From positions 6,327 through 57,616 of the forward strand of contig CAYMHI010000006.1 in the NCBI GenBank assembly GCA_964390265.1: a DNA stretch of 51,290 nt, in the 5' to 3' direction. Position 1 is the stretch's first letter; each line of letters starts with the position of its first letter. The position numbers and the translations under genes are program-made. The notes beneath the pieces are model-generated. The model saw only the letters and a list, made by a program, of their open reading frames with translations. It searched no databases and was not told the origin of the DNA. The DNA is from an uncultured Candidatus Saccharibacteria bacterium. Lineage in GTDB: Bacteria > Patescibacteriota > Saccharimonadia > CAILAD01 > BJGX01. Shown piece after piece: positions 6,503-40,696 of this stretch.

Positions 6503-7279
6503 TTATGGTCTAAGCGTACCAGCAAAAACTTGCCAAGCTAAAGCTGACTTTGCAACTAAGCTAAGAATAATGTAGGCTCGTTCGCCGTAAAGGTAATCGC
6601 GCCAAGGACCAATCTTTTTGTATTGCAATACCATATTGATAGCGAAACAATTGAAAAATATAAATAAGCTTACAAATATGTAGTAAACAAAGGTTGGTAT
6701 TTTGGCATCACCTACGCCAAACTGCGCCGAAGCCCAAAAAGTTAGTGCTATACCTATCCATGGTATTATACCCGCCAAACTACCTATCCAAAAACTCAAC
6801 CAACTAGTCTTTTTGGTAGTTTGATTATGCACTTCCATTATTAAGCCACACAAATTCATTACGGCTGTTAAGGCAAATAATGCTAGAAGCGTTACTATGT
6901 CATAAATACCTGTAAGCATGGCAATGGCTACTATCATAGTACTGGCACTTACGCTATATTCTATCCAACGAGCTCGGTTCATACCTTTTGCAAGATCGGC
7001 CTCATAGCCCTTGCGCCAAACTGTGGTGATTATTAAATGTGCAATTCCGCTCATAAACAAAAAGGCCACAACAAGGTAGGCCAAATTGATATTAAATAGC
7101 GTTTTGGTGACCGGCGCCAAAGTTCGAGTAGCTACATCAAACTGCAAAAAAGTAGTTGTTACGGGCAAAGTAAAGCTTTTACTCAAATACAATATTAATC
7201 CAGCTTGGGCAAAATGCAGTGCAGCCGCCACAAGATTTAAATTACGCAATTTTTTCATTGAAATTTTCGATTCAGCCAC
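6503..7279 (-). CDS. Heliorhodopsin (7-TM retinal protein with inverted topology)
   Basis: Strong similarity to heliorhodopsin 48C12 as I recall it. RWIEYSVSASTMIV matches RWVEYSLSSSVMIV, which contains the counterion Glu. GERAYIILSLVAKSALAWQVFAGTL matches GERAYIVLSLVAKSALAWQIFSGTL, which contains the Schiff-base Lys. AAGGAG sits 6 nt before the ATG. Confidence 0.85.
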   Translation of the reverse strand: MAESKISMKKLRNLNLVAAALHFAQAGLILYLSKSFTLPVTTTFLQFDVATRTLAPVTKTLFNINLAYLVVAFLFMSGIAHLIITTVWRKGYEADLAKGMNRARWIEYSVSASTMIVAIAMLTGIYDIVTLLALFALTAVMNLCGLIMEVHNQTTKKTSWLSFWIGSLAGIIPWIGIALTFWASAQFGVGDAKIPTFVYYIFVSLFIFFNCFAINMVLQYKKIGPWRDYLYGERAYIILSLVAKSALAWQVFAGTLRP

Positions 7280-23853: not shown

Positions 23854-24040
23854 AACTATTATTATACAGGCTTATATAACAATATAATATTTCACTATTA
23901 TTACTAATTAAATTTTAGACTTATCTCGCAGCATCTAGGATATATATCTGTGTGTTCTCGACCGAGTCGGCAGTTAGCACCTACTATGATGCCAAAAACT
24001 CCAGAAGCTACCGGCCTAGTTGGTAGCAATCGACATTCAA

Positions 24041-24068
24041 CCCTCTCACTAATCGTTAGAGGGTTTTT
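24041..24068 (+). terminator. Terminator-like hairpin (CCCTCT/AGAGGG) followed by TTTTT on the plus strand, with no plus-strand CDS upstream
   Basis: 6-bp GC stem, 11-nt loop and a T5 run. It may close a small non-coding transcript initiated in 23880-24040. Confidence 0.3.
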
Positions 24069-24099
24069 ACATATAAGTTAATATAATAATTGATGTAAA

Positions 24100-24131
24100 T
24101 GAAAAACCGTCCATGCAAATGCATGGACGGT
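24100..24131 (-). terminator. Rho-independent terminator of the flotillin gene
   Basis: Palindrome ACCGTCCATGCAAATGCATGGACGGT, followed on the minus strand by TTTTTC. Confidence 0.55.
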
Positions 24132-24143
24132 ATATGTAATGAC

Positions 24144-26264
24144 CTACTCGTAGGTGGTCATGCCCTCATCGACTGACTCAGCCGAGGAGTCGCCTTCTGA
24201 TGGCGTGGCTTCGGTTGTTGGGTCGGTCGCGAGCTCGGGCTGAGCAGAATCGTTACTGCCCATGAAAGAGCCGCCATCGGCGCCATTGCGCATCGCCATC
24301 GCGAGCAATGCATCTAGCATACCACTTCCGGCGCCCTGGCCACCCACAAGGATATCGGGCGTCAGGTTGATGTTGCCATCACCAATCTCGTGCAGAGCAG
24401 CAACGACCGCCGTCTGTTCGGGACCAATGGCATCCTTCTGTGCCTCGTAGCCAGCTGCCACAGCAAGACCCTTGGCCTTGGTTGTCTCAGCTTCAGCCAG
24501 ACCAGTTGCCTGAATGGCACTGGCATTGGCATCACCGGTGATCTTGGTGATATCGGCCGCTGCCTGGCCCTTCTGACGTGTGACCTCAGCCTCGCCTTCA
24601 GCCTGCTTGACAGCTGCCTTAGCTTCAGCATCTCTGACGTCAATATTGACGTTCGCTCGAGCCAAATCGGCCTGAGCATCAGCCACACCCTTCTGGTTCT
24701 CGAGAGCAATACGTGCCTGCTCGGCTACCATCTCACTCTCGTACGTTGCCTTCTGCTGAGCCGCGATCTCTCGCTTTGTGAGTACTTCAACAAGCTCGGG
24801 CGGGAAGACTACGTCCTGAATGTAGACACCTCGCACCTCAACCTCATAGCGGGTCAAGTACGTAGTGATATACTGTTCGGCCGCAGCCTGAACTTCGTCA
24901 CGTTTCTGAATGAACTCAGCAGCACCGAGTGACTGCAACTTGTTACGGAAGTAGTTGCCTACCGCCGATTGCAGCACCTCATTGACAAGATTCTGCATGG
25001 TCGCAACCATGCTGATAACCTTCGGTGCCCTAGTATCAGGTACGTGAATCTGCACCTGTAAATCAATACTGAAGTCGAATGCCTCCCTGCTCATGGCATC
25101 AATTGCAGACAATCGCGCATCAAGATCATGAGCTTCGCTGGTAGCGTTGGCCCAGTTTAGCGTCAAGATAGACGTCGGAACGATCTCGGCCTCGTAGATA
25201 CGAGGGTTAAGGGTATACTTGCCGGTGCGCATCGGCTCCGACCAAATACCCTGATGACCCGGCTTAACAATAGAGCCAAACTTGAACTCATTACCAGAAG
25301 TGTCTTCAGTCGGCAAGCCAACATAGGCCTTGATGACAGCTACCTCGCCCTGACGGACGACGAGCATGTCGCGGATCTCGACTTCTACAAGATAAGGATT
25401 GAGCAAGTATTGCCCGTAGAGCAATGGGTCGTGCTGCAAACCAATACACCCACCGGCGTCCAGAAAGGCCTGGAAGTCCTGATAGTTATCGTGCACTTCA
25501 TTTTGCGGAGCCAACACTTTGGTAATGATGGTATTGGCCGGAATGCCCTCTGCCTCGGCTGCGATGACATCATCATAGCCACCAAGTCGACTGGCAATGC
25601 CCTTGGCCGCTGCGCCTTCTAGGGTAGTGACCACACCAACCTTGTCAGTATGCCCCTCTGGTCTAATAGTGAATGGTTTGAACTTACTTCTGTCGACCAT
25701 GTGTAAAACATTCTTGGTACTTTCGGAGAGGACTTCACCGAAGGTCTGCGAAGCAGTCTGTACCACGAAGGCAATGGGGTGCATCTGCTGGGTAGTACCC
25801 GGAGGCAAAACCTTTCGCTGCACACCACGCTGTCCTCCATTCGATAAGAAGGCATTGAGATCTGCGAAAGATCCAAATTCTTCCTTGTCTACACCTGTCT
25901 TCACACCCCGAGGAAGTTCTTCGCCTACTTGAGCGACAACTACGCCAATCTCATCTGGCGGCACTTGCACCATCTGACACTTCTTGACCAAGAAGATCGG
26001 CCAAAGCTTGAAGCGTGTACCCGGTTGTAGCAACTCTGCTTGGTACCCTGCCTCACCATGGAAGGCAATCAGATGCCCATCGTTAAGCTTCTTTCCAAAT
26101 CGCTTCTCGACTAGTCCGAACTGGTCGGGGCCGATGCTATGGATGCTCTTTGTGACGAACCGCCACGCAAAGAACGCAACGATCAGCAGTAAGACGCCTA
26201 GCACTATTGGAACAACCGGAATACTCATGGCTGCACCAATCATATATATATGGGAATGTACCAT
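24144..26264 (-). CDS. Flotillin-like SPFH/band-7 protein (FloT/YqiK type) on a GC-rich island
   Basis: N-terminal TM, an SPFH domain and a long Ala/Glu/Gln/Lys coiled-coil flotillin C-terminus (EAKAAVKQAEGEAEVTRQKGQAAAD...). The start is uncertain: ATGs occur at 26264, 26243 and 26228, and the ORF extends to 26336. GC-rich codons throughout. Confidence 0.8.
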   Translation of the reverse strand: MVHSHIYMIGAAMSIPVVPIVLGVLLLIVAFFAWRFVTKSIHSIGPDQFGLVEKRFGKKLNDGHLIAFHGEAGYQAELLQPGTRFKLWPIFLVKKCQMVQVPPDEIGVVVAQVGEELPRGVKTGVDKEEFGSFADLNAFLSNGGQRGVQRKVLPPGTTQQMHPIAFVVQTASQTFGEVLSESTKNVLHMVDRSKFKPFTIRPEGHTDKVGVVTTLEGAAAKGIASRLGGYDDVIAAEAEGIPANTIITKVLAPQNEVHDNYQDFQAFLDAGGCIGLQHDPLLYGQYLLNPYLVEVEIRDMLVVRQGEVAVIKAYVGLPTEDTSGNEFKFGSIVKPGHQGIWSEPMRTGKYTLNPRIYEAEIVPTSILTLNWANATSEAHDLDARLSAIDAMSREAFDFSIDLQVQIHVPDTRAPKVISMVATMQNLVNEVLQSAVGNYFRNKLQSLGAAEFIQKRDEVQAAAEQYITTYLTRYEVEVRGVYIQDVVFPPELVEVLTKREIAAQQKATYESEMVAEQARIALENQKGVADAQADLARANVNIDVRDAEAKAAVKQAEGEAEVTRQKGQAAADITKITGDANASAIQATGLAEAETTKAKGLAVAAGYEAQKDAIGPEQTAVVAALHEIGDGNINLTPDILVGGQGAGSGMLDALLAMAMRNGADGGSFMGSNDSAQPELATDPTTEATPSEGDSSAESVDEGMTTYE

Positions 26265-26489
26265 GTCCTTATAGGACCTTTCTCTAGGGAATACTTTCCG
26301 ATGCGCTATTATACAGACGAAATGAAAAATACGCAATAGTTTTGTTTTGCATAAGCCCTTTAGGATTATTTATTGCTAACAGATATACTACAACCCTACG
26401 CAACCAACTAACAACTAAGAAAGTTGGTATAAATGAAAAACCGGCCTGCTCTCTGGGTCAGAGAACAGACCGGGTGTTGCTGGTGGTGC

Positions 26490-27176
26490 TTAACAGTCGG
26501 GGTCGGCTACCGGTACTCGCAACTGGTCTCGGACTACACTCTTGTGGTAGCCCGTCTCGGGTGTACCCATCACCACGTCGTATACCAGCGTGAACTGGTT
26601 GAAGCGAGCGCCCAGGGCGCGCAGGTTGCACTCTGTCAAGCGAGATTCGCTGATCTCGCCCCGACCGTACTCCCCGTTCTGGAACTGCCAGCCCGCGATC
26701 AACGTCTCAGAGTAACCATCGATCGAGAACTCCTCCTCGTAATTGAAATCACGGGTTACCAAGAACCCAGGCTGATCACCCGAATGCAGGTAGTCATCCA
26801 TGGAGTCTTGTTTGAGGCCATCAATCTCGGCCTGATTGGCCTGGATGTTCACATCGGCATGCATGTGCTCAATGAACACCTGGGTGGTCTCAGGCGCACT
26901 CACTAGTTCTACGCGGATGTTGAGGGTCTTGCTGTCGGTGATCCTCCACGAATCAATGTCATAGCCCGTGGAGTAGGTCATTCTTAGCTCGACAGGAGAA
27001 GGCGAACCAGAATTGATGGTGGTCTCGATGCTGAAGTTGCCACCGGCCAGATCGTTGTCGAGCACACCAATACCCCGCTCGTGCTGGGTATCTTGAGATT
27101 GCTCTGGCCCTGAGGTGCAGGCCGCCAGCATGGCGATCAGCACCGTCACCAGTAGCAGAAATGAAGGTACGCGCAT
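26490..27176 (-). CDS. Lipoprotein of unknown function on the same GC-rich island
   Basis: Signal peptide MRVPSFLLLVTVLIAMLAAC with lipobox LAAC. The start is the internal ATG, which has an AAAGGA SD. GC-rich codons. Confidence 0.6.
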   Translation of the reverse strand: MRVPSFLLLVTVLIAMLAACTSGPEQSQDTQHERGIGVLDNDLAGGNFSIETTINSGSPSPVELRMTYSTGYDIDSWRITDSKTLNIRVELVSAPETTQVFIEHMHADVNIQANQAEIDGLKQDSMDDYLHSGDQPGFLVTRDFNYEEEFSIDGYSETLIAGWQFQNGEYGRGEISESRLTECNLRALGARFNQFTLVYDVVMGTPETGYHKSVVRDQLRVPVADPDC

Positions 27177-31627: not shown

Positions 31628-32764
31628 CTAAAACTTATTCTTATCTAGCTCTTCAAACTTGGCCTTCATAGTAGGATTACCACGGGTCAGGCGCTTGATA
31701 GTCAGATCTTCGGCTTTTTGATTGGCAAGTCTCAAGTTGTCTTCAGAACGCAGCAGATTCTCTTTGGTCTTTTGTAGTTGTGCGATAGTCTTGTCTATAC
31801 CCTCTATGGCCGATTGAAACTTACGACTTGCTAGATCGTAATTGCGCGCAAACCCTTCTTTGAATGCATTGATATTATCTTCAAAATCAGTGATGTCGAT
31901 ATTTTGAGCTCTGACCAATGCTAGCTCAGACTTGTATTGCATAGAGTTGAGTGCGGCGTCGCGTAGCAGGGTAATAATCTGTATGAAAAACTGCGGACGT
32001 ATCACATACATCTTGGGGTGCTTGTGTGAGACATTGACTATGCCGGTATTGTACAGCTCACTATCTGCCTCGAGCAATGTGACTAGCACTGCAAATTCGC
32101 ATTTCTTCTCATTGCGGTCTTTGTCGAGCTCTTTCAAGAAATCCTCATTGCGCTTCTTGGTAGCAGTCTCATCACCTTCGTTTTTCATCTCAAACATTAT
32201 AGAGATGATCTCGTTGCCGGCCTCGTCGGTCTCACGATATATGTAGTCGCCCTTGCTCCCACTACTAGCATCGTTGTCTTTTTCGAAGTAGGCGTTTTTA
32301 AATGCGGTTGCTCGCAACTTGTTGAATTCCGTCTCGCAATGTTGCTCGAGAGTCTCACCCACCATCTTGGTACTGAGCTTAGACTTCATATCTTTGTAGA
32401 GCTCTACTGTGCTCTCGGCTATTTTTAGATCACCCTCGAGTCCATTTATCTTGTTTTCGTAGCGTTCTCGGAGCTCTTCGACAGCTTCGGTGACAGCCAG
32501 TTTCTTCTCAGTATCTATCGAGTCTAGCTTGGATTGTAGCTTGACTATCTCGGCATCTTTTTGGGCTGTCTCGGCTTGCAGAGCACTTTTAGTCTTGGCC
32601 TCGGCCAGCGCTACGGCGCTCTCTTTGTCTTTTTCAAATAGCTCGAGCCGCTCGTGCAGTTCTTTCTCAAACTCACCATCGCGCACTTGTTTGAGTATAT
32701 TGGTAAAATCCGCCTCGTCGAGCTTAAAAGTTTTTTTACAATGTGGACATACAATTTCGTTCAT
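31628..32764 (-). CDS. DUF2130 protein (N-terminal CxxC zinc ribbon plus long coiled coil)
   Basis: [40 protein letters not shown] matches the DUF2130 N-terminus. 378 aa. Confidence 0.6.
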
Positions 32765-32888
32765 GTACCATTACTCCATCTTCTTATATAAAATTCTTAT
32801 CACCATTTTACCAAATATAGTACGAACACTCAATCATTAATAATGTTAATTACAAACCTCTTTTGTATATCGATTTCTATGCAGAGTA

Positions 32889-33761
32889 TTAGTTCTTAAT
32901 CTCTAGCGAATATTTAAGCAAAGTAAGAGAAGAATATGCTACCATTTGTACATAATTTAATGCAAATTCTTTGTTGATATCTTCATCTTTTGTAAGGGAA
33001 TTTTGGTAGTCAAATAGATAGTTCACCAAATCAAAAAAGAAAGCGATTGTGTTGATAACTGGCGACATACTATTTTCATCAAATCTAAGATGTAGAAACT
33101 CATTCTTTCTGAAAGAATCTGATCTCATTAATTTAGCTCCAATATCAAAATTATAAATAATACTTTTATATTTTTGTTTATTCATACAGTCACTCCTTAT
33201 ACTCCACCCAATAAGCTGTATAATATTAGTATTGTTACTAATAATTTTCATAATCTTTAGTCTAGGTTCCACAGTATGTACTAAATCATGTCTGTAAATC
33301 TGTATTAAGTATTTACTATACTTTCTATATCTTGCCTTCATATCTTTAGGTCCAAAAGACATTAACAGTTTACTAATATTACCTGTACCTTTACCATAGG
33401 AACTATTTTTATCGGGGCCATATCTTAACATAGATACTAAATCTATATAACAAAAAATATTTCTTAATACTGTAAATGGTGCTCCACCAGCTGTTACTTC
33501 GGGTGAATTTAATAGAGGGTAAACATCGTCACGTAATTGATCAATAAGAACACCTATGTATTCACTGGGGGTTATTAACCCGCAATTATATTTCAAATAT
33601 GGCTCAATTCTACTAGCCTCTTCAATGGCCGTAATATCATTAATAAATTCGTATACCCTAGCCCGATCGCCATCAGCCAATCTAACTAAATTTTTGTCCT
33701 TTAAAATTTTATCTAGTACTTCATTTCTGAACGCTTGTGTATTGTCTTCCCAGCCGCTCAT
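32889..33761 (-). CDS. Hypothetical protein within the defense-like island; possible HEPN/Abi-like (Rx4H motif)
   Basis: 290 aa and very AT-rich. It contains QIYRHDLVH (R-x4-H), but I recognise no other homology. Confidence 0.45.
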   Translation of the reverse strand: MSGWEDNTQAFRNEVLDKILKDKNLVRLADGDRARVYEFINDITAIEEASRIEPYLKYNCGLITPSEYIGVLIDQLRDDVYPLLNSPEVTAGGAPFTVLRNIFCYIDLVSMLRYGPDKNSSYGKGTGNISKLLMSFGPKDMKARYRKYSKYLIQIYRHDLVHTVEPRLKIMKIISNNTNIIQLIGWSIRSDCMNKQKYKSIIYNFDIGAKLMRSDSFRKNEFLHLRFDENSMSPVINTIAFFFDLVNYLFDYQNSLTKDEDINKEFALNYVQMVAYSSLTLLKYSLEIKN

Positions 33762-33800
33762 ATTATGTTATGAGTATATTTTTCAATTTCAACCAACATG

Positions 33801-34964
33801 CTAGCGATTACCCTTTGCACGGTTATGGGATATGCATAGCATTTCGCAGTTGCTAATGTCGGTTTTACCACCATTACTCCAGGCTGTTACGTGATCCGCA
33901 TCCATTTCAGATAACTTATATATACGGTCTTTGTTATTATTATTCCCAGAAGCACAAACGGGGCAATTTGATACTCCTTTTGCTTCAGCCTTTGCTGTTT
34001 GTTGTGCATAAGCCGTCTTAATCGTAGATGGTTCAAATATGCGTATTTTTAGCAATGAAGGGTCCTTCATGCCACCAAGAATGTACTCAAAAACACCTTT
34101 CTTCCTGCGTACTTCGTAATTCGTAAAAAGCTCTCTAACTTTGGATGCAACCTCTTGTGGATCATAAGAATTAGAACCGTAATCTTTGTACAAGCGATTC
34201 CATTCAAGCCCACGCATTTCGCTATGAACATCTGTGAAAATATTTGAAGCCCAATCTATGACCTTGTCGAAATGACTTTTAAGTTCTTCTATGTTGCCAT
34301 CATTACGATGCTTACTCATGTAGGCATCTATTCGCCCATTGCTTACCCAATCCAGCGCTGTCTCAAGGAAGTCTTGCCGCTTTACATCGCCGGCAACGTA
34401 GGCACTCCATTTTTGAACATTAGCATCTTGACTGTTACTAAAAACTTCCTTTGCCTTTGTCACGAATGGCCCATGATAGACTGCATTTCGAATTTCTTGT
34501 ATTTTTAAAGGTACACCAGCAATGTTAATGGTCTCAAACCATTTCATCATTTCTTGCTCTTCACCCTCGCAGATATAAATGAGTAACTCTTTATCTAATA
34601 TCAATTTACGCTGTGCTTCAGACATTCCACTGTAGTATTGTTCGTGATCATTAGCGTCTTTAACTGCAAACTTGCCTTTAACAAATCGGCCAATACTAGT
34701 AATTCGTTGTTGGCCATCTAACACCTCGTACTTATTGCCACCAATTTTATTAAAATAGATAATACCAATTGGATAGCCCTTTAATATGCTATTTATTACA
34801 GCAACGTCCTTTATGCCGTCGGCATAAATATAATTTCTCTGATACTCGGGCTGAATTGTGAGCTTTCCCGTAAGTCCAAACAAACCTTTTCCTTCAAACT
34901 CATTGTATTCAAATCCATCTACTATCTCTCTTATGGTAATGTTAGTATTTAGTGTTGTAATCAT
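33801..34964 (-). CDS. DUF262 (ParB-like nuclease/NTPase, DGQQR motif) fused to a C-terminal HNH endonuclease
   Basis: The N-terminal domain carries the ILDGQQRITSIGRF hallmark of DUF262/GmrS-like domains. The C-terminus is an HNH (His-Me finger): CPVC..(n)..DADHVTAWSNGGKTDISNCEMLCISHNRAKGN. ATGA overlap with the upstream MTase. Confidence 0.8.
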   Translation of the reverse strand: MITTLNTNITIREIVDGFEYNEFEGKGLFGLTGKLTIQPEYQRNYIYADGIKDVAVINSILKGYPIGIIYFNKIGGNKYEVLDGQQRITSIGRFVKGKFAVKDANDHEQYYSGMSEAQRKLILDKELLIYICEGEEQEMMKWFETINIAGVPLKIQEIRNAVYHGPFVTKAKEVFSNSQDANVQKWSAYVAGDVKRQDFLETALDWVSNGRIDAYMSKHRNDGNIEELKSHFDKVIDWASNIFTDVHSEMRGLEWNRLYKDYGSNSYDPQEVASKVRELFTNYEVRRKKGVFEYILGGMKDPSLLKIRIFEPSTIKTAYAQQTAKAEAKGVSNCPVCASGNNNNKDRIYKLSEMDADHVTAWSNGGKTDISNCEMLCISHNRAKGNR

Positions 34965-36136
34965 TTTAGTGCCTTTCTATGTTTAATAAGTATTCGCGAG
35001 TATACTTTTTTCTTATTTACAACACCAACGCCTTGACCTGCACCCTCCGCCCCAGAGACATTAGGAATAAAACCAGTGATTTTTAATAATTCTTTCGGCA
35101 TATTTGCATAAGAGTTCCCGCTAGCTTGCCAGATTATTTCGAATTGATCAGGGTTATATTTATCTAAAAAACTAATAGGTACACCCATGATGCCGTCGAA
35201 GTCTGATGGGATTGCATCTGTATATGGCACCTCGATTGCATTGTAATTGTCGTATCTTCTATATGCTGAATCGCTTTTAGTAATCTTTTTATTAAATTTT
35301 TTATTATCTGCCATAGTCATGATTGCTAAAGGTTGATGCCGTCTGCCGTGGTCAAGGTTTGTAAACCAGCAAGAATTACCCAGCCTCGTAAAGTCACCTT
35401 TGTATCCTAGTTTTTCAGCTTTCTTCTTATAAGCAGGGGGCACATCAGAGCCTTTAGGAACAGCAAATACCATATCGCTAGTATAGCCCGTAGCCCCTTG
35501 CCACATCTTATTTTCTCTAATTAACGGAAAAATTTCTTTATATATTACTGCACCAATATTACCTATAATCAAGAACTTTTTATCATACTTAACTAGCTGC
35601 GCTACATATTCACGGAAAAGGCTGAAGGGCGGGTTGGTAACAATAACGTCAGATTTATTGAGTAGTGCAACGCACTCATCGCTGCGAAAATCGCCATCCC
35701 CCTCGAGTGGAGCCCACTCATTATTCTTATTTGCCTTGAGCTGTTCAGCAATGTCTGAAATATTGAAAGCTCCATCACCATCCATGTCATGTACATCGTT
35801 TATAATAAATAAATTTGCATTAACTTTTGGCCTACCCTTTTCAGGCTGAATAGTTTTATCGTCACCAAATAATGCAAGTTGTGTATTAGCTATCGGCGAA
35901 GGTTTGTAGCTTGTAGTAATGAGTTGCTTGAGGCCTAGACGGTTAAAATTAAGTGCAAAATAGCGGAAAAAGTTACTTTCAAAAGGGTCATCGCAATTAC
36001 AATAGACAACTTTTCGACGGAAAGAATTTGGATCATATTCGAGATATGCTTCTATTTCTTTTTGAATGTCAGCAAATTGAGTGTAGAACTCATCATTCTT
36101 TGCACTTTTAGCTGCACTTAAATTAGTATTTGCCAT
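34961..36136 (-). CDS. N6-adenine DNA methyltransferase, M.EcoRI-like family
   Basis: NDEFYTQ...VVYCNCDDPFESNFFRYFALNF...DVIVTNPPFSLFREY (motif IV NPPF)...GIMGVPISFL. The domain order and motifs resemble M.EcoRI-family enzymes as I recall them. Confidence 0.8.
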   Translation of the reverse strand: MANTNLSAAKSAKNDEFYTQFADIQKEIEAYLEYDPNSFRRKVVYCNCDDPFESNFFRYFALNFNRLGLKQLITTSYKPSPIANTQLALFGDDKTIQPEKGRPKVNANLFIINDVHDMDGDGAFNISDIAEQLKANKNNEWAPLEGDGDFRSDECVALLNKSDVIVTNPPFSLFREYVAQLVKYDKKFLIIGNIGAVIYKEIFPLIRENKMWQGATGYTSDMVFAVPKGSDVPPAYKKKAEKLGYKGDFTRLGNSCWFTNLDHGRRHQPLAIMTMADNKKFNKKITKSDSAYRRYDNYNAIEVPYTDAIPSDFDGIMGVPISFLDKYNPDQFEIIWQASGNSYANMPKELLKITGFIPNVSGAEGAGQGVGVVNKKKVYSRILIKHRKALK

Positions 36137-36199
36137 TAATCTCCAAGGTTTAATTAACTCTAATTATACTACTTTTTCAGATAAGCAGACAGGTTATTC

Positions 36200-36547
36200 T
36201 TATAGCTCCGTGTATTTTTTATGATTGCCTTTGGCCTTGGCTACAGGATACTTTTGGGCGTTCTTGGCCAGCTTGGCCATAAAAGCCTCTGATATATCTA
36301 TATCTAAGTCATTACACATAAGTAGAATCCAATACAACACATCGGCCAGCTCCTCGCTTACATCAACTTTATTATCTACTACATGATCTCTCATCTCCTC
36401 GGCGCTCTTCCACTGAAAATGCTCTAGTACTTCGGCCGCCTCTAGTGCAAGCGAAATCGCTGAGTCTTTGGGGTTGTGAAACTGCGCCCAGTCGCGCTCG
36501 TCACGAAACTTCACTACTTCTTTTTGTAAATCATTTATCTCTGCCAT
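36200..36547 (-). CDS. MazG-like nucleotide pyrophosphohydrolase (small all-alpha NTP-PPase)
   Basis: 115 aa. The EEAEVLEHF...EELADVLYWILLMCNDLDIDI motifs are characteristic of MazG/YpjD-type proteins. Confidence 0.85.
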   Translation of the reverse strand: MAEINDLQKEVVKFRDERDWAQFHNPKDSAISLALEAAEVLEHFQWKSAEEMRDHVVDNKVDVSEELADVLYWILLMCNDLDIDISEAFMAKLAKNAQKYPVAKAKGNHKKYTEL

Positions 36548-38420: not shown

Positions 38421-39098
38421 TTAAGTAGACTGTTTAATCAACACAGCGCTATTGTGCTTGGCGCTATTAACCTCGCTTGAGACAGTGTAGGCGCTCATAT
38501 CTTTGGCTTTGTATGGCTGCAGTAGGTGTTCCAAAAATCCAATGTCATCATTGGCCTTGGGGCTAATCCAGTCGTCCTCTTGGCTGGGCTCTAATATAAC
38601 CGGCATACGGTCGTGTATGGGCTTAACTACCCCATTGGGGTTGGTGGTAATAATGGAGTAACTACGGATGACTTCACCGCTGGATTTGTCTGTCCACTCA
38701 TCATATAGCCCGGCAAAGGCAAAGGTATCCTCACCGGTAAGGTGTATGTAGTAAGGGGTTTTGGTACTGCCGTCGCGCCGCCATTCATAAAATCCACTAG
38801 CTGGCACCAAACAGCGTTGCGACTTAAAAGGGCGTTTCCAGGTAGGTTTTTCGGCCAAGGTCTCGGCTCGGGCATTTATCATCTTGTAGCCTATAGTGGC
38901 GTCCTTGGCCCAAACAGGGATAAGCCCCCAACGCATCAGCTCGAGCTGGTTGCCTTTGCCGCTATTGGTGATTACCGGCATGGTCTGGCCGGGCGCGATA
39001 TTGTAGTTGGGTTTGATCTCACCAGCCGGCTTGCCCTGCACTCCAAAACGAGTGATGAGTTTGGCCTTGCCACTAACGAGGGTGTATCTTCCGCACAT
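38421..39098 (-). CDS. SOS-response associated peptidase (SRAP/YedK/HMCES family; abasic-site DNA-protein crosslink)
   Basis: The N-terminal MCGRYTL carries the catalytic Cys2 of SRAP proteins. 225 aa. Confidence 0.9.
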   Translation of the reverse strand: MCGRYTLVSGKAKLITRFGVQGKPAGEIKPNYNIAPGQTMPVITNSGKGNQLELMRWGLIPVWAKDATIGYKMINARAETLAEKPTWKRPFKSQRCLVPASGFYEWRRDGSTKTPYYIHLTGEDTFAFAGLYDEWTDKSSGEVIRSYSIITTNPNGVVKPIHDRMPVILEPSQEDDWISPKANDDIGFLEHLLQPYKAKDMSAYTVSSEVNSAKHNSAVLIKQST

Positions 39099-39171: not shown

Positions 39172-39432
39172 ATGATAGAGCCGGTAAACCAAGCTGTAGA
39201 TATACTCTCACTCTCACGCAAGGGGCGAGGTATAGTGGTGCCTTTGCGGATGAAGTGGAACAACAAGACCTATGAGATCAAAAAAATAGGCTTGCGCCAC
39301 CCCGTGCGCGAGGGTCGGGTGCTTTATCATATATTTGAATGTAGCGATGGCAACCTAAGCTTTCGGCTCAGACATAATACTGAGTCTTTGCAATGGACCC
39401 TAGAGGCAATTAGTGATGGCCTACCTGCTTAA
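39172..39432 (+). CDS. Small protein immediately upstream of, and overlapping, the Y-family polymerase gene; possible polymerase accessory subunit (YolD/UmuD analogue)
   Basis: 86 aa. It overlaps the polymerase ORF by 17-20 nt. No domain recognised. Confidence 0.4.
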   Translation: MIEPVNQAVDILSLSRKGRGIVVPLRMKWNNKTYEIKKIGLRHPVREGRVLYHIFECSDGNLSFRLRHNTESLQWTLEAISDGLPA

Positions 39433-40696
39433 CTCATCAGAGCTATGCAAAGATAATCCGCAAACCATGCACATCGATCTCAATAGTGCCTTTGCGACTA
39501 TTGAGCAACAAGCCAATCCATTGCTGCGCGGTAAACCGATAGGTGTGTGCTCGTATACTAGCCCGGGCGGGATAATTCTGGCGGCTAGCTATGAGGCTAA
39601 GGCGCTAGGCATAGTTACCGGCACACCGGTGCGCCAAGCCAAAGCCATCTGCCCAAATATTGTAGTGATGATGCCCGACCCCGATAAGTATTATTATGTG
39701 AACTCCTTGCTGTATCGTCTGCTGGGTAGATACACCTCAGATATTACTCCCCTCTCAGTCGATGAGTTTGTGCTCGATTTTAGCCGCAGCCGCAGCGTTA
39801 ACCCTCGCCCACTTACGCAAATAGCCCGCGAGATAAAGCGCAGGATTCACTATGAAATTGGCGACTGGATGCGCGTAAATATTGGCATTGGTACCAATCG
39901 GTTTTTGGCCAAGACAGCGGCTAGTTTGCACAAGCCCAATGGGCTAGATGTAATAAGCCATAATAATTTGCACGAGGTATATGCTAGCTTGGAGCTGCGT
40001 GATTTGTGCGGCATAAACTATCGCATGGAGTCGCGGCTAAATGCGGCGGGTATTTTTACACCATTAGAATTTCTAGAGGCCAGCGCTGAGGTACTCAAAA
40101 AACGAGTTTATAAAAGCATAGAGGGCTACCGGTGGTATCAGCGCTTGCGGGGCTACGAGGTAGATGGGGTTACCTATGGGCGCAAATCTTTTGGTAATGA
40201 TTTTGCTATCTACCAAGCGACTGCCGACCGGCACGAGTTGTCGCGAATGATAATGAAGCTGTGCGAAAAAACTGGCCGGCGCCTGCGACGCAATAATTAT
40301 TTTGCCCGCGGTGCCCATTTGTGGCTACTATACGATGATAATACCTATTGGCACACCGGCAAGAAATCGCAGACTGTTCTCTACTCTACCAACGATATCT
40401 ATGAGGCCATTATGCGCGTGTTTAATCGTCAGCCCGAATACAAGCCGGTGAGCAAGATTGGCATATCGGTCTATGGCCTAGAACCAACTCGGCCCGAGCA
40501 AATAGAGCTGTTTGAAACCATAGCTACCAAACAGCGACAAATTGCTGGCGCAGTCGATAAGACCAACGACACTTATGGCGAGTTTACACTTATACCGGCG
40601 CTGATGATGAATATGAACGATACTATTATTAAGCGCGTACCATTTGGTGGTACTAAAGATCTTAAACTTCTCTACAGCCAATACGCCAATATCTAG
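39416..40696 (+). CDS. Y-family DNA polymerase (UmuC/DinB/UvrX-like) with catalytic residues intact
   Basis: MHIDLNSAFATIEQ is motif I (D..F.A.VE) and LSVDEFVLDF is motif III (SIDEAFLD). Alternative starts are the GTG at 39413, the ATG at 39416 and the ATG at 39467 directly before motif I. Confidence 0.85.
   Translation: MAYLLNSSELCKDNPQTMHIDLNSAFATIEQQANPLLRGKPIGVCSYTSPGGIILAASYEAKALGIVTGTPVRQAKAICPNIVVMMPDPDKYYYVNSLLYRLLGRYTSDITPLSVDEFVLDFSRSRSVNPRPLTQIAREIKRRIHYEIGDWMRVNIGIGTNRFLAKTAASLHKPNGLDVISHNNLHEVYASLELRDLCGINYRMESRLNAAGIFTPLEFLEASAEVLKKRVYKSIEGYRWYQRLRGYEVDGVTYGRKSFGNDFAIYQATADRHELSRMIMKLCEKTGRRLRRNNYFARGAHLWLLYDDNTYWHTGKKSQTVLYSTNDIYEAIMRVFNRQPEYKPVSKIGISVYGLEPTRPEQIELFETIATKQRQIAGAVDKTNDTYGEFTLIPALMMNMNDTIIKRVPFGGTKDLKLLYSQYANI

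Follow-up and report, generated by a model that had tools for sequence, protein, structure and literature searches.

A widespread two-gene restriction-modification module with a DUF262-HNH nuclease, and its neighbouring genes, in a Candidatus Saccharibacteria genome

The characterised DUF262 nucleases, GmrSD, BrxU and SspE, all depend on or sense modified DNA (PMC12707154, PMC12065111). In these proteins, an N-terminal DUF262 domain with DGQQR is combined with a nuclease domain of the His-Me finger type at the C-terminus (PMC4619093), a layout shared by the nuclease analysed here. In the literature, we found no paper characterising a DUF262 domain that is used against unmethylated DNA. Two other groups of proteins are relevant to the locus. 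HEPN domains follow a rule by which an Rx4-6H motif has a polar residue after the arginine, and at least 16 HEPN clades are known to be linked to restriction-modification (R-M) systems (PMC3710099). DUF2130 has been placed in the PD-(D/E)XK superfamily as a family with no assigned function (PMC3424549).

Here we describe a locus in a 51,290-nucleotide stretch of DNA (the window) from an uncultured Candidatus Saccharibacteria bacterium. We consider it very probable that the core of this locus is an autonomous, horizontally mobile R-M pair, with a gene for a 290-aa protein as its cargo, a DUF2130 gene as a separate neighbour and a MazG-like gene as an unrelated flank.

Layout of the locus and its core gene pair

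Five consecutive open reading frames on the minus strand were found exactly where the initial annotation had placed them. These genes and two of the gaps between them are as follows.

36200-36547, minus strand: MazG-like gene, 115 aa, PF12643
36137-36199, minus strand: 63-nt gap upstream of the methyltransferase gene, with TATAAT at 36168-36163 and GGAG at 36144-36141
34961-36136, minus strand: M.EcoRI-family methyltransferase (MTase) gene, 391 aa, PF13651
33801-34964, minus strand: DUF262-HNH nuclease gene, 387 aa, GmrSD_N + HNH
32889-33761, minus strand: gene for the 290-aa protein, no Pfam match, RHDLxH motif
32765-32888, minus strand: 124-nt gap between the 290-aa gene and the DUF2130 gene, with a promoter-like TTGAGT-17-TAAAAT, TG-extended, at 32833-32805
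31628-32764, minus strand: DUF2130 gene, 378 aa, PF09903

The domains named earlier from the sequence (MazG-like, EcoRI_methylase, DUF262 with HNH, DUF2130, and a 290-aa protein lacking a Pfam match) were all recovered by profile searches. The MTase matches EcoRI_methylase PF13651 in Pfam (E=7.6e-126) and, over its full length, MTase_II PDLC03297 in PADLOC (E=5.7e-105), and its translation contains the NPPF catalytic motif (VTNPPFS). The nuclease contains GmrSD_N/DUF262 (3.4e-20) and HNH (3.2e-7) domains in Pfam. Its residues 7-386 align to positions 6-371 of the 372 in the PADLOC profile REase_II PDLC03418 (E=2.8e-89), and its N-terminal domain also gives partial PADLOC matches to NsnA and PD-T4-2_A. 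When the nuclease profile was compared with the PDB, the sole touch was BrxU 7p9k in the DGQQR region (E=0.064). The invariant residues of the nuclease are D83-G-Q-Q-R87, D357-H358, N372 and H380-N381, together with four cysteines (C334, C337, C373 and C377). The catalytic motifs of both proteins are intact. At the C-terminus of the nuclease, Pfam profiles found only a classical zinc HNH, PF01844, and no PF07510 (DUF1524/GmrSD_C); true GmrSD neighbours at two other loci (L084 and L105) do match PF07510. It is worth noting that the conserved DGQQR is an NTPase-type motif, which makes NTP dependence of the nuclease a possibility.

The stop codon of the MTase gene and the start codon of the nuclease gene overlap in an ATGA at 34961-34964, as had been reported, and a gap does follow the nuclease gene, with a length of 39 nt rather than the 40 nt given before. 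The region was also described as a block of about 30% GC, which is not the case: 31628-36547 has 38.3% GC, versus 42.1% in the whole window. The values for single genes are 44.8% (DUF2130), 30.8% (290-aa), 38.7% (nuclease), 37.8% (MTase) and 44.0% (MazG). About 30% GC is thus confined to the 290-aa gene, MazG and DUF2130 do not fall below background, and an AT-rich island comprises the three middle genes at most. The TATAAT and GGAG upstream of the MTase gene are consensus matches read from the sequence and possibly represent a candidate promoter and ribosome-binding site of the MTase-nuclease operon's own; promoter-like sites in this region are no more frequent than in shuffled sequences. The promoter-like site in the gap 32765-32888 is a weak hint that DUF2130 may be transcribed separately.

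More than 8000 relatives of the nuclease exist, nearly all of 387 aa. To count co-occurring genes, we used 80 genome loci that carry the nuclease, from many phyla. An MTase gene lies directly upstream in the same orientation in 75 of these 80 loci. In the other five the nuclease is at the start of a contig, so that the order is found in 75/75 loci where there is room for it. The 4-nt overlap is the commonest spacing (39/81 loci), and the spacing is 20 nt or less in 68/81. The pair is co-inherited across Saccharibacteria, Bacteroidales, Clostridia, Proteobacteria, Chloroflexi, Verrucomicrobia and others, with 60-71% identity, and is found without other partners on a 9.2-kb Moraxella plasmid, on E. 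faecium megaplasmids and in the Flavobacterium phage laban6-1. The nuclease is better conserved than its MTase in 45/47 loci, which is unusual for Type II pairs.

The MTase and the DUF262-HNH nuclease therefore form a widespread, catalogued and translationally coupled two-gene R-M module. An MTase with a SAM-dependent MTase fold and NPPF as its (D/N)PP(Y/F) motif, a separate, adjacent and co-inherited nuclease gene and a match to a curated REase family are all present, as expected of a Type II system. The combination had been called undescribed, which does not hold, as both proteins match PADLOC Type II profiles and the nuclease has thousands of relatives; the profile searches that had been proposed placed both in catalogued Type II families. 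The defence character and the R-M-type pair of the initial annotation were confirmed, and its five genes as a single system were not. A catalogued family and neighbours that are not conserved were what it had named as arguing against its reading, and both were found; a known specificity, which it had also named, was not. When palindromes were examined for avoidance in the window and in 1.24 Mb of host DNA, neither a signal nor a candidate recognition site emerged, and we found no experiment on, or named prototype of, a DUF262-HNH Type II nuclease family.

The 290-aa protein family

The open reading frame after the nuclease is a different one at nearly every of the 80 loci. Even in relatives 87-89% identical, the third gene is DUF4268, SLFN_AlbA_2 or GmrSD. 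The position at the 3' side of the nuclease serves as a slot for variable cargo, and here the 290-aa gene occupies it.

The 290-aa protein has no match in Pfam, even at E<=10, or in PADLOC, PHROGs or NCBIfam, and a Pfam search of 48 relatives gave no match to a HEPN family. Its Rx4H motif, pointed out in the initial annotation, is present as R157-H-D-L-V-H162 (RHDLxH), and the arginine and the histidine are invariant in 21 full-length and 48 distant relatives. The predicted structure (pLDDT 86.5, pTM 0.88) has a helical core that bears the motif, and its fold similarity to solved HEPN domains, which are four-helix up-down bundles, is marginal. The family is very rare, and a co-oriented R-M system lies directly upstream of the homologue in 7/10 loci, the window included. 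With a conservative count of at least 6/10 R-M-adjacent loci, the binomial P is ~1e-8 at a background of 2%. The upstream systems are of at least five unrelated kinds, only one of the loci (L176) having a Type I system, and the family therefore does not belong to any one of them as a dedicated subunit.

These features suggest that the 290-aa protein is a putative R-M-linked, HEPN-like RNase or abortive-infection effector of a second line of defence. Acting alone or once restriction fails, such an RNase would bring about abortive infection. It is also conceivable, and in our view rather unlikely, that the protein is not an RNase and serves as a regulator that binds DNA or protein, an inhibitor-decoy sensor, a stabiliser of the restriction complex or a selfish rider on R-M systems. 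Against these roles, the residue after the arginine of the invariant motif is a histidine, which is polar as the HEPN rule demands, R-M-linked HEPN clades are already numerous (PMC3710099), and the distant relatives of ~200 aa keep the motif-bearing core alone.

If the RNase reading is true, the family adds a new member to the layered strategy of restriction plus suicide RNase and might be a generic backstop for any R-M type, PrrC-like and without an ATPase or a fixed partner. The core R-M pair is ordinary as a catalogue entry, and the 290-aa family is uncatalogued. We regard this family as the more valuable lead, as it is rare, unannotated, recurrent 3' of unrelated R-M systems and equipped with an RNase-type motif.

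DUF2130 and the MazG-like flank

The DUF2130 protein matches PF09903 (4e-84). A CPxC zinc ribbon stands at its N-terminus and a PD-(D/E)XK-type domain at its C-terminus, with a long region in between, an architecture which we take to resemble that of RmuC. In 81 DUF2130 sequences, about 120 of the 378 positions are at least 97% identical; conservation reaches at least 97% at C6, P7, C9, D173 and K194, and the middle acidic residue is below 97%. The protein is classified as a member of the PD-(D/E)XK superfamily and is a predicted nuclease.

The gene upstream of DUF2130 is co-oriented with it in 57/60 loci. Among 51 upstream open reading frames scanned, a raw count gives about 20 restriction or defence genes, belonging to at least five types: Type I HsdR (5), AAA_15/21/OLD (up to 7), GmrSD_N (4), Type IIG (2) and the MTES_1575 helicase-nuclease (2). 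BrxL, RhuM, GmrSD and AAA_15/21 are found downstream, and housekeeping genes are also among the neighbours (80 loci). In three loci (L105, L129 and L142), DUF2130 lies 8 nt behind a divergent MTase and DUF262-HNH pair of 37% identity. At one further locus (L054) DUF2130 directly follows the nuclease gene, and at another (L042) it lies between the MTase and nuclease genes. Given these arrangements, some functional link of DUF2130 to such pairs is conceivable.

In a further reading, DUF2130 assists restriction and defence nucleases in general, such as by an RmuC-like processing of restriction breaks, and would do so here too. The co-orientation, the variety of defence neighbours, the short gaps and the conserved D173 and K194 of this superfamily member (PMC3424549) speak for it. 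We nevertheless find it doubtful, because DUF2130 is missing from 78/80 loci with this R-M type, its extreme conservation is unlike that of fast-evolving defence genes, its GC content is that of the background, it has a promoter-like site of its own, and housekeeping genes adjoin it as well. DUF2130 is probably a neighbour that forms its own transcription unit and often sits in defence islands. Current defence catalogues do not list it, and we regard it as a candidate gene of defence islands.

The 290-aa and DUF2130 genes had been proposed as additional defence players. They do adjoin many types of restriction and defence genes, and they are not specific partners of this nuclease; both are generalist neighbours. 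A bolder combination, in which the 290-aa protein is the founder of a group of stand-alone R-M-linked HEPN-like RNases that serve any R-M type and DUF2130 is an unrecognised defence-island nuclease, is an attractive speculation to which we give limited credence.

The MazG-like all-alpha NTP pyrophosphohydrolase (PF12643, 5e-18) is an unrelated flanking gene outside the module. The R-M module most likely arrived by insertion between the MazG-like gene and DUF2130, because the GC contents of the MTase, nuclease and 290-aa genes are below those of MazG, DUF2130 and the window, and because at one other locus (L097), where no R-M system intervenes, what remains of a truncated MazG directly adjoins DUF2130. 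No target-site duplication or flanking repeats were found at the insertion.

Proposed mechanism and comparison with known systems

In the mechanism that we propose for the core pair, the M.EcoRI-family N6-adenine MTase would mark host DNA, the ATGA overlap would couple translation of the two genes, and the nuclease, with its N-terminal ParB-like DUF262 domain and C-terminal zinc-bound HNH domain, would cut unmarked incoming DNA. The constant pairing with an MTase implies that unmodified DNA is the target, not modified DNA, and it is on this strict linkage that we infer the nuclease to be blocked by the methyl mark. By analogy with GmrSD, BrxU and SspE, the DUF262 domain may be an NTP-dependent sensor or clamp.

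The nuclease could instead be a modification-dependent, GmrSD-like Type IV enzyme, and the MTase beside it could serve another purpose than protection. Such a role would fit the behaviour of every characterised DUF262 nuclease and the N-terminal matches to GmrSD_N and, partially, to NsnA and PD-T4-2_A. We consider it very improbable: the invariable order of MTase then nuclease, with the 4-nt overlap as the commonest spacing, is what marks an R-M pair of the toxin-antidote kind; a Type IV enzyme would be self-destructive if a neighbouring MTase made its substrate; the nuclease ends in a zinc HNH domain rather than DUF1524; and the profile matched over its full length is one of Type II REases. 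That all five genes form one new defence system, with the 290-aa and DUF2130 proteins as dedicated sensors or effectors, is hardly credible and largely refuted by the co-occurrence data, since, despite their shared orientation and close spacing and the presence of DUF2130 beside this R-M type in 2/80 nuclease-centred and 3/80 DUF2130-centred loci, the 290-aa and MazG genes each occur in 0/80 nuclease loci, a small plasmid and a phage carry the pair alone, the third gene varies even between close relatives, and the GC contents of MazG and DUF2130 are unlike those of the middle genes.

In genomes the nuclease is annotated merely as a "DUF262 domain-containing protein" and is easily mistaken for a novelty; recognising the module prevents such over-calling. 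With its very many members and the unusual conservation of the nuclease, the DUF262-HNH family is well suited to enzymological study.

Compared with M.EcoRI-family R-M systems of Type II (IIP-like), the module has the same separate, co-oriented and coupled MTase and nuclease genes, the same NPPF motif and the same mobility on plasmids and phage. R.EcoRI is a PD-(D/E)XK enzyme, whereas the nuclease in the window has a ParB-like DUF262 domain and HNH instead and is more conserved than its MTase. GmrSD, BrxU and SspE carry DUF1524 and have ~590-730 aa, whereas our nuclease carries zinc HNH PF01844 and has 387 aa. A GmrSD-type Type IV enzyme was considered and is disfavoured: the DUF262 domain with DGQQR is present, but there is no DUF1524, and an MTase is found at every locus with room for one.

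The 290-aa family shares with PrrC-EcoprrI and other R-M-linked HEPN proteins the Rx4H motif, the polar residue after the arginine and the adjacency to R-M genes (Anantharaman et al. 2013, PMC3710099). The logic that we propose for it is that of PrrC-EcoprrI, a second-line RNase for when restriction fails. The family differs from PrrC in that it has no ABC-ATPase domain and no HEPN profile match and is not limited to Type I systems. A PrrC-type anticodon nuclease was accordingly rejected for the 290-aa protein, which has no ABC/AAA_13 ATPase and here stands behind a Type II-like pair. DUF2130 may be compared with RmuC and other coiled-coil PD-(D/E)XK proteins. It has a place in this superfamily (PMC3424549), with D173 and K194 conserved, and differs from RmuC as a distinct Pfam family, PF09903, with its N-terminal CPxC zinc ribbon.

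The five-gene block and its core pair

The block consists of five consecutive genes on the minus strand. The ORF listing gives exactly the coordinates claimed in the initial annotation, and each of its domain calls is matched by Pfam, including the lack of any family for the 290-aa protein:

36200-36547, minus strand: MazG-like protein (PF12643, 5e-18)
34961-36136, minus strand: EcoRI_methylase adenine methyltransferase, MTase (PF13651, 7.6e-126)
33801-34964, minus strand: nuclease with GmrSD_N/DUF262 and HNH domains (Pfam)
32889-33761, minus strand: 290-aa protein (no Pfam family)
31628-32764, minus strand: DUF2130 protein (Pfam, 4e-84)

The reported overlap of the MTase and nuclease genes is also visible in the sequence, as an ATGA that holds the stop codon of the MTase and the start codon of the nuclease, and the 290-aa gene follows the nuclease after 39 nt. 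These observations are real, except for the claim on composition. A GC content of about 30% had been given for the whole block, but this holds only for the 290-aa gene (30.8%). The block as a whole has 38.3% against 42.1% for the window, with 38.7% in the nuclease and 37.8% in the MTase, while DUF2130 (44.8%) and MazG (44.0%) lie at or above background. Rfam and tRNA scans of the window were negative for rRNA, tRNA and all other Rfam families, and promoter and terminator scans did no better than shuffles.

The MTase and the nuclease had been regarded as an undescribed combination, but a PADLOC profile search assigns both to Type II models. The nuclease matches REase_II PDLC03418 with E=2.8e-89 over nearly the full profile (residues 7-386 to positions 6-371 of 372), and the MTase matches MTase_II PDLC03297 with E=5.7e-105. 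The other PADLOC matches of the nuclease (NsnA, PD-T4-2_A and HEC-05/06) cover the DUF262 domain only. The nuclease has more than 8000 relatives, the best 120 of which share at least 66% identity and are nearly all exactly 387 aa long; the closest named relatives among the matches listed belong to Candidatus Saccharibacteria, which makes a Saccharibacteria or Patescibacteria host probable. In an alignment of 22 nuclease sequences, the ParB-type DGQQR (D83-R87), the HNH residues D357-H358, N372 and H380-N381, and four zinc-type cysteines (C334, C337, C373 and C377) are invariant, so the DUF262 and HNH domains both look catalytically intact.

To assess which genes belong together, 80 genome loci carrying a nuclease of 60-71% identity were searched with all proteins of the window. 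Their hosts include Saccharibacteria, other Patescibacteria, Bacteroidales, Clostridia, Alpha- and Gammaproteobacteria, Chloroflexi, Verrucomicrobia and Omnitrophota, among others. An MTase homolog lies immediately upstream on the same strand in 75 of the 80 loci, and in all five loci that lack it the contig begins with the nuclease. Homologs of the 290-aa gene, MazG and DUF4287 were found in none of the 80, and DUF2130 in two. The MTase alone thus accompanies the nuclease consistently, and the proposal that the five genes form one new system is not supported.

The spacing of the pair is also tight. Across these loci and close relatives (n=81), the two genes overlap by 4 nt in 39 and lie within 20 nt in 68. 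We note that nine of the 81 loci (L019, L020, L025, L033, L034, L038, L042, L051 and L074) have 0.3-3.1 kb inserted between the two genes; in L042 the insertion carries an AAA_15/AAA_21 ATPase and a DUF2130 gene. When the ORFs 3' of the nuclease are clustered, nearly all loci fall into different clusters. Relatives with 87-89% identical nucleases retain the pair and its overlap with a variable next gene, which is DUF4268 in L081 and L082, SLFN_AlbA_2 in L083, and a 727-aa GmrSD in L084-L086; elsewhere this slot holds AAA_13, SMEK, DUF4209 or unannotated proteins. The slot 3' of the nuclease is a variable cargo position. L081, with an 89% identical nuclease, also encodes a 63-aa HTH_17/MerR-type protein directly upstream of the MTase (6627-6818), which may be a controller (C) protein. 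The window has no such gene and carries MazG on that side of the MTase.

The pair is mobile. A 9.2-kb plasmid of Moraxella osloensis carries it, as do plasmids of Rhodococcus and Pseudarthrobacter and optrA/erm(A) megaplasmids of E. faecium; in the Flavobacterium phage vB_FspS_laban6-1 it forms a two-gene insertion (gp07-gp08) beside the tape-measure gene. On the enterococcal megaplasmids, pBN83-1 among them, it lies ~5 kb or less from both optrA and erm(A). Carriers that can be cultivated include M. osloensis NBRC 115781 (plasmid pSKB0120-6) and E. faecium BN83 (pBN83-1). Taken together, the near-constant MTase, the rarity of the other genes and this mobility indicate that the functional unit is the MTase plus the nuclease. 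As read from its sequence, the core is a catalogued and widespread two-gene restriction-modification (R-M) system.

Among the 47 loci with both proteins full-length, the nuclease is more conserved than the MTase in 45, with a median identity to the window of 63% versus 48% and a mean pairwise identity of 72% versus 57%. The usual Type II trend is the reverse, with the nuclease less conserved than the MTase. The MTase diverges mainly at residues ~91-120, ~211-240 and 331-391.

Proposed working of the core

The domain content, intact motifs, gene order, coupling and strict co-inheritance of the pair were observed directly. Following established R-M logic, N6-adenine methylation by the MTase would shield the DNA of the host, and unmethylated DNA would be open to attack by the nuclease. 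We read the nuclease in this way because a strictly linked and coupled MTase would make no sense for a modification-dependent enzyme. By analogy to GmrSD, BrxU and SspE, which combine DUF262 with DUF1524, the DUF262 domain may add NTP-dependent sensing or clamping (PMC4619093, PMC12707154). The nuclease nevertheless stands outside the GmrSD family, as it lacks DUF1524 and is never solitary.

Literature searches turned up neither a characterised or named Type II prototype of the DUF262-HNH kind nor a recognition site. Sequence searches of the PDB gave only a marginal contact with BrxU for the nuclease, through its profile, and no match for the MTase or DUF2130. The AF2 model of the nuclease has a pLDDT of 66, owing to an input alignment that was too shallow and too similar, and was left out of the fold searches. 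A recognition site was also sought by Markov-corrected observed/expected ratios of 4-mers and 6-mers, both in the window and across host loci totalling 1.24 Mb. Among palindromes, only the usual GGCC, CTAG and GATC are depleted there, and neither AATT nor GAATTC is consistently avoided.

DUF2130, MazG and the surroundings of the cassette

The DUF2130 family appears among the members listed for the PD-(D/E)XK superfamily, with its function unassigned there (PMC3424549). Among 81 sequences, conservation reaches 97% or more at about 120 of the 378 positions, including a CPxC zinc ribbon, D173 and K194. In 80 metagenome loci centred on DUF2130, an M.EcoRI-like MTase with a divergent DUF262-HNH protein (37-38% identity), ending 8 nt before DUF2130, was found three times. 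The ORF upstream of DUF2130 has the same orientation in 57 of 60 loci, and the 51 upstream ORFs scanned include five Type I HsdR, up to seven AAA_21/AAA_15/OLD-type ATPases, four GmrSD_N proteins, two type IIG enzymes and two MTES_1575 helicase-nucleases. Downstream ORFs include BrxL, RhuM, GmrSD, AAA_15/21, DUF2726 and a serine recombinase, together with housekeeping genes. None of the four libraries searched, PADLOC included, links DUF2130 to defence. DUF2130 is often a resident of defence islands, an enrichment that is qualitative, and it is not a specific partner of the R-M system in the window. It is a candidate defence-island nuclease.

MazG never accompanies the R-M genes in the 80 nuclease loci. 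In the DUF2130-centred locus L097, a truncated 63-aa MazG-like ORF (161-352), similar to the N-terminus of the MazG in the window, abuts DUF2130 (330-1619) with no R-M genes between them, possibly representing an ancestral or empty-site arrangement. This MazG remnant and the GC pattern suggest that the MTase, nuclease and 290-aa genes form a cassette lying between two older residents, MazG and DUF2130. The flanks of the cassette carry no convincing repeats, either direct or inverted.

Elsewhere in the window, positions 24001-27000 have a clearly higher GC content, 0.51-0.54 against ~0.42, and may be another acquired segment. No rRNA lies in this stretch, and the 730-aa ORF within it (24144-26336, minus strand) has no relative by sequence in PDB. 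Judged from their translations, the ORFs at 38421-39098 (225 aa, starting MCGRY) and 39413-40696 (427 aa) look like an SOS-response-associated peptidase and a Y-family DNA polymerase, respectively.

The 290-aa family

The 290-aa protein has no match in Pfam (even at E<=10), PADLOC, NCBIfam or PHROGs, nothing meaningful in a PDB sequence search, and no significant Foldseek match of its model to PDB or BFVD. Nine relatives came from a word-indexed search among 5.8 billion proteins, and 56 from an exhaustive profile search among 1.84 billion representatives. Thirteen of the 56 are full-length with E values of 1e-30 or better, and about 40 are shorter (~200 aa) and align only to profile positions 65-170. 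None of 48 relatives matches any Pfam or PADLOC model, and none of the viral contigs searched carries the family. Y156, R157, H162 and P166 are invariant across all relatives, within a motif YRHxxxHxxxP that conforms to the HEPN rule of Rx4H with the histidine after the arginine (PMC3710099).

The genomic contexts of the family are a stronger result than the motif.

Genes directly upstream of the 290-aa gene and its relatives, with the gap to it
Window: M.EcoRI-like MTase and DUF262-HNH; 39 nt
L087/L088: C5-MTase, 342-aa protein and Vsr; 30 nt
L090: 1059-aa MmeI/Eco57I-type IIG enzyme; 55 nt
L175: Eco57I and TaqI_C type IIG enzyme; 1 nt
L179: fragment 80% identical to the L175 enzyme; 1 nt
L178: C5-MTase and RE_HaeII; 75 nt
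L176: Type I hsdR-M-S, then two small ORFs
L174, L177: not R-M; relative convergent with phage terminase genes (prophage edge)
L089: no R-M

R-M genes lie directly upstream in seven of ten loci, although the independent linkage events are somewhat fewer, since L175 and L179 come from related lineages. The binomial P is ~1e-8 for a conservative count of at least six of ten, assuming that 2% of genes are R-M. L174 and L177 were dropped as R-M contexts, as the adjoining genes encode phage terminase subunits and phage MTases. By sequence and context, the family of the 290-aa gene is rare, uncatalogued and linked to R-M, and it has a HEPN-type motif.

The partner R-M systems are unrelated in mechanism, which makes a dedicated subunit role for the 290-aa protein unlikely. 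By analogy, the best fit would be an R-M-linked second-line effector, or an independent abortive-infection gene riding on R-M operons. A second-line effector role has been proposed for PrrC, an R-M-guarding HEPN anticodon nuclease, and for at least 16 other HEPN clades linked to R-M (PMC3710099).
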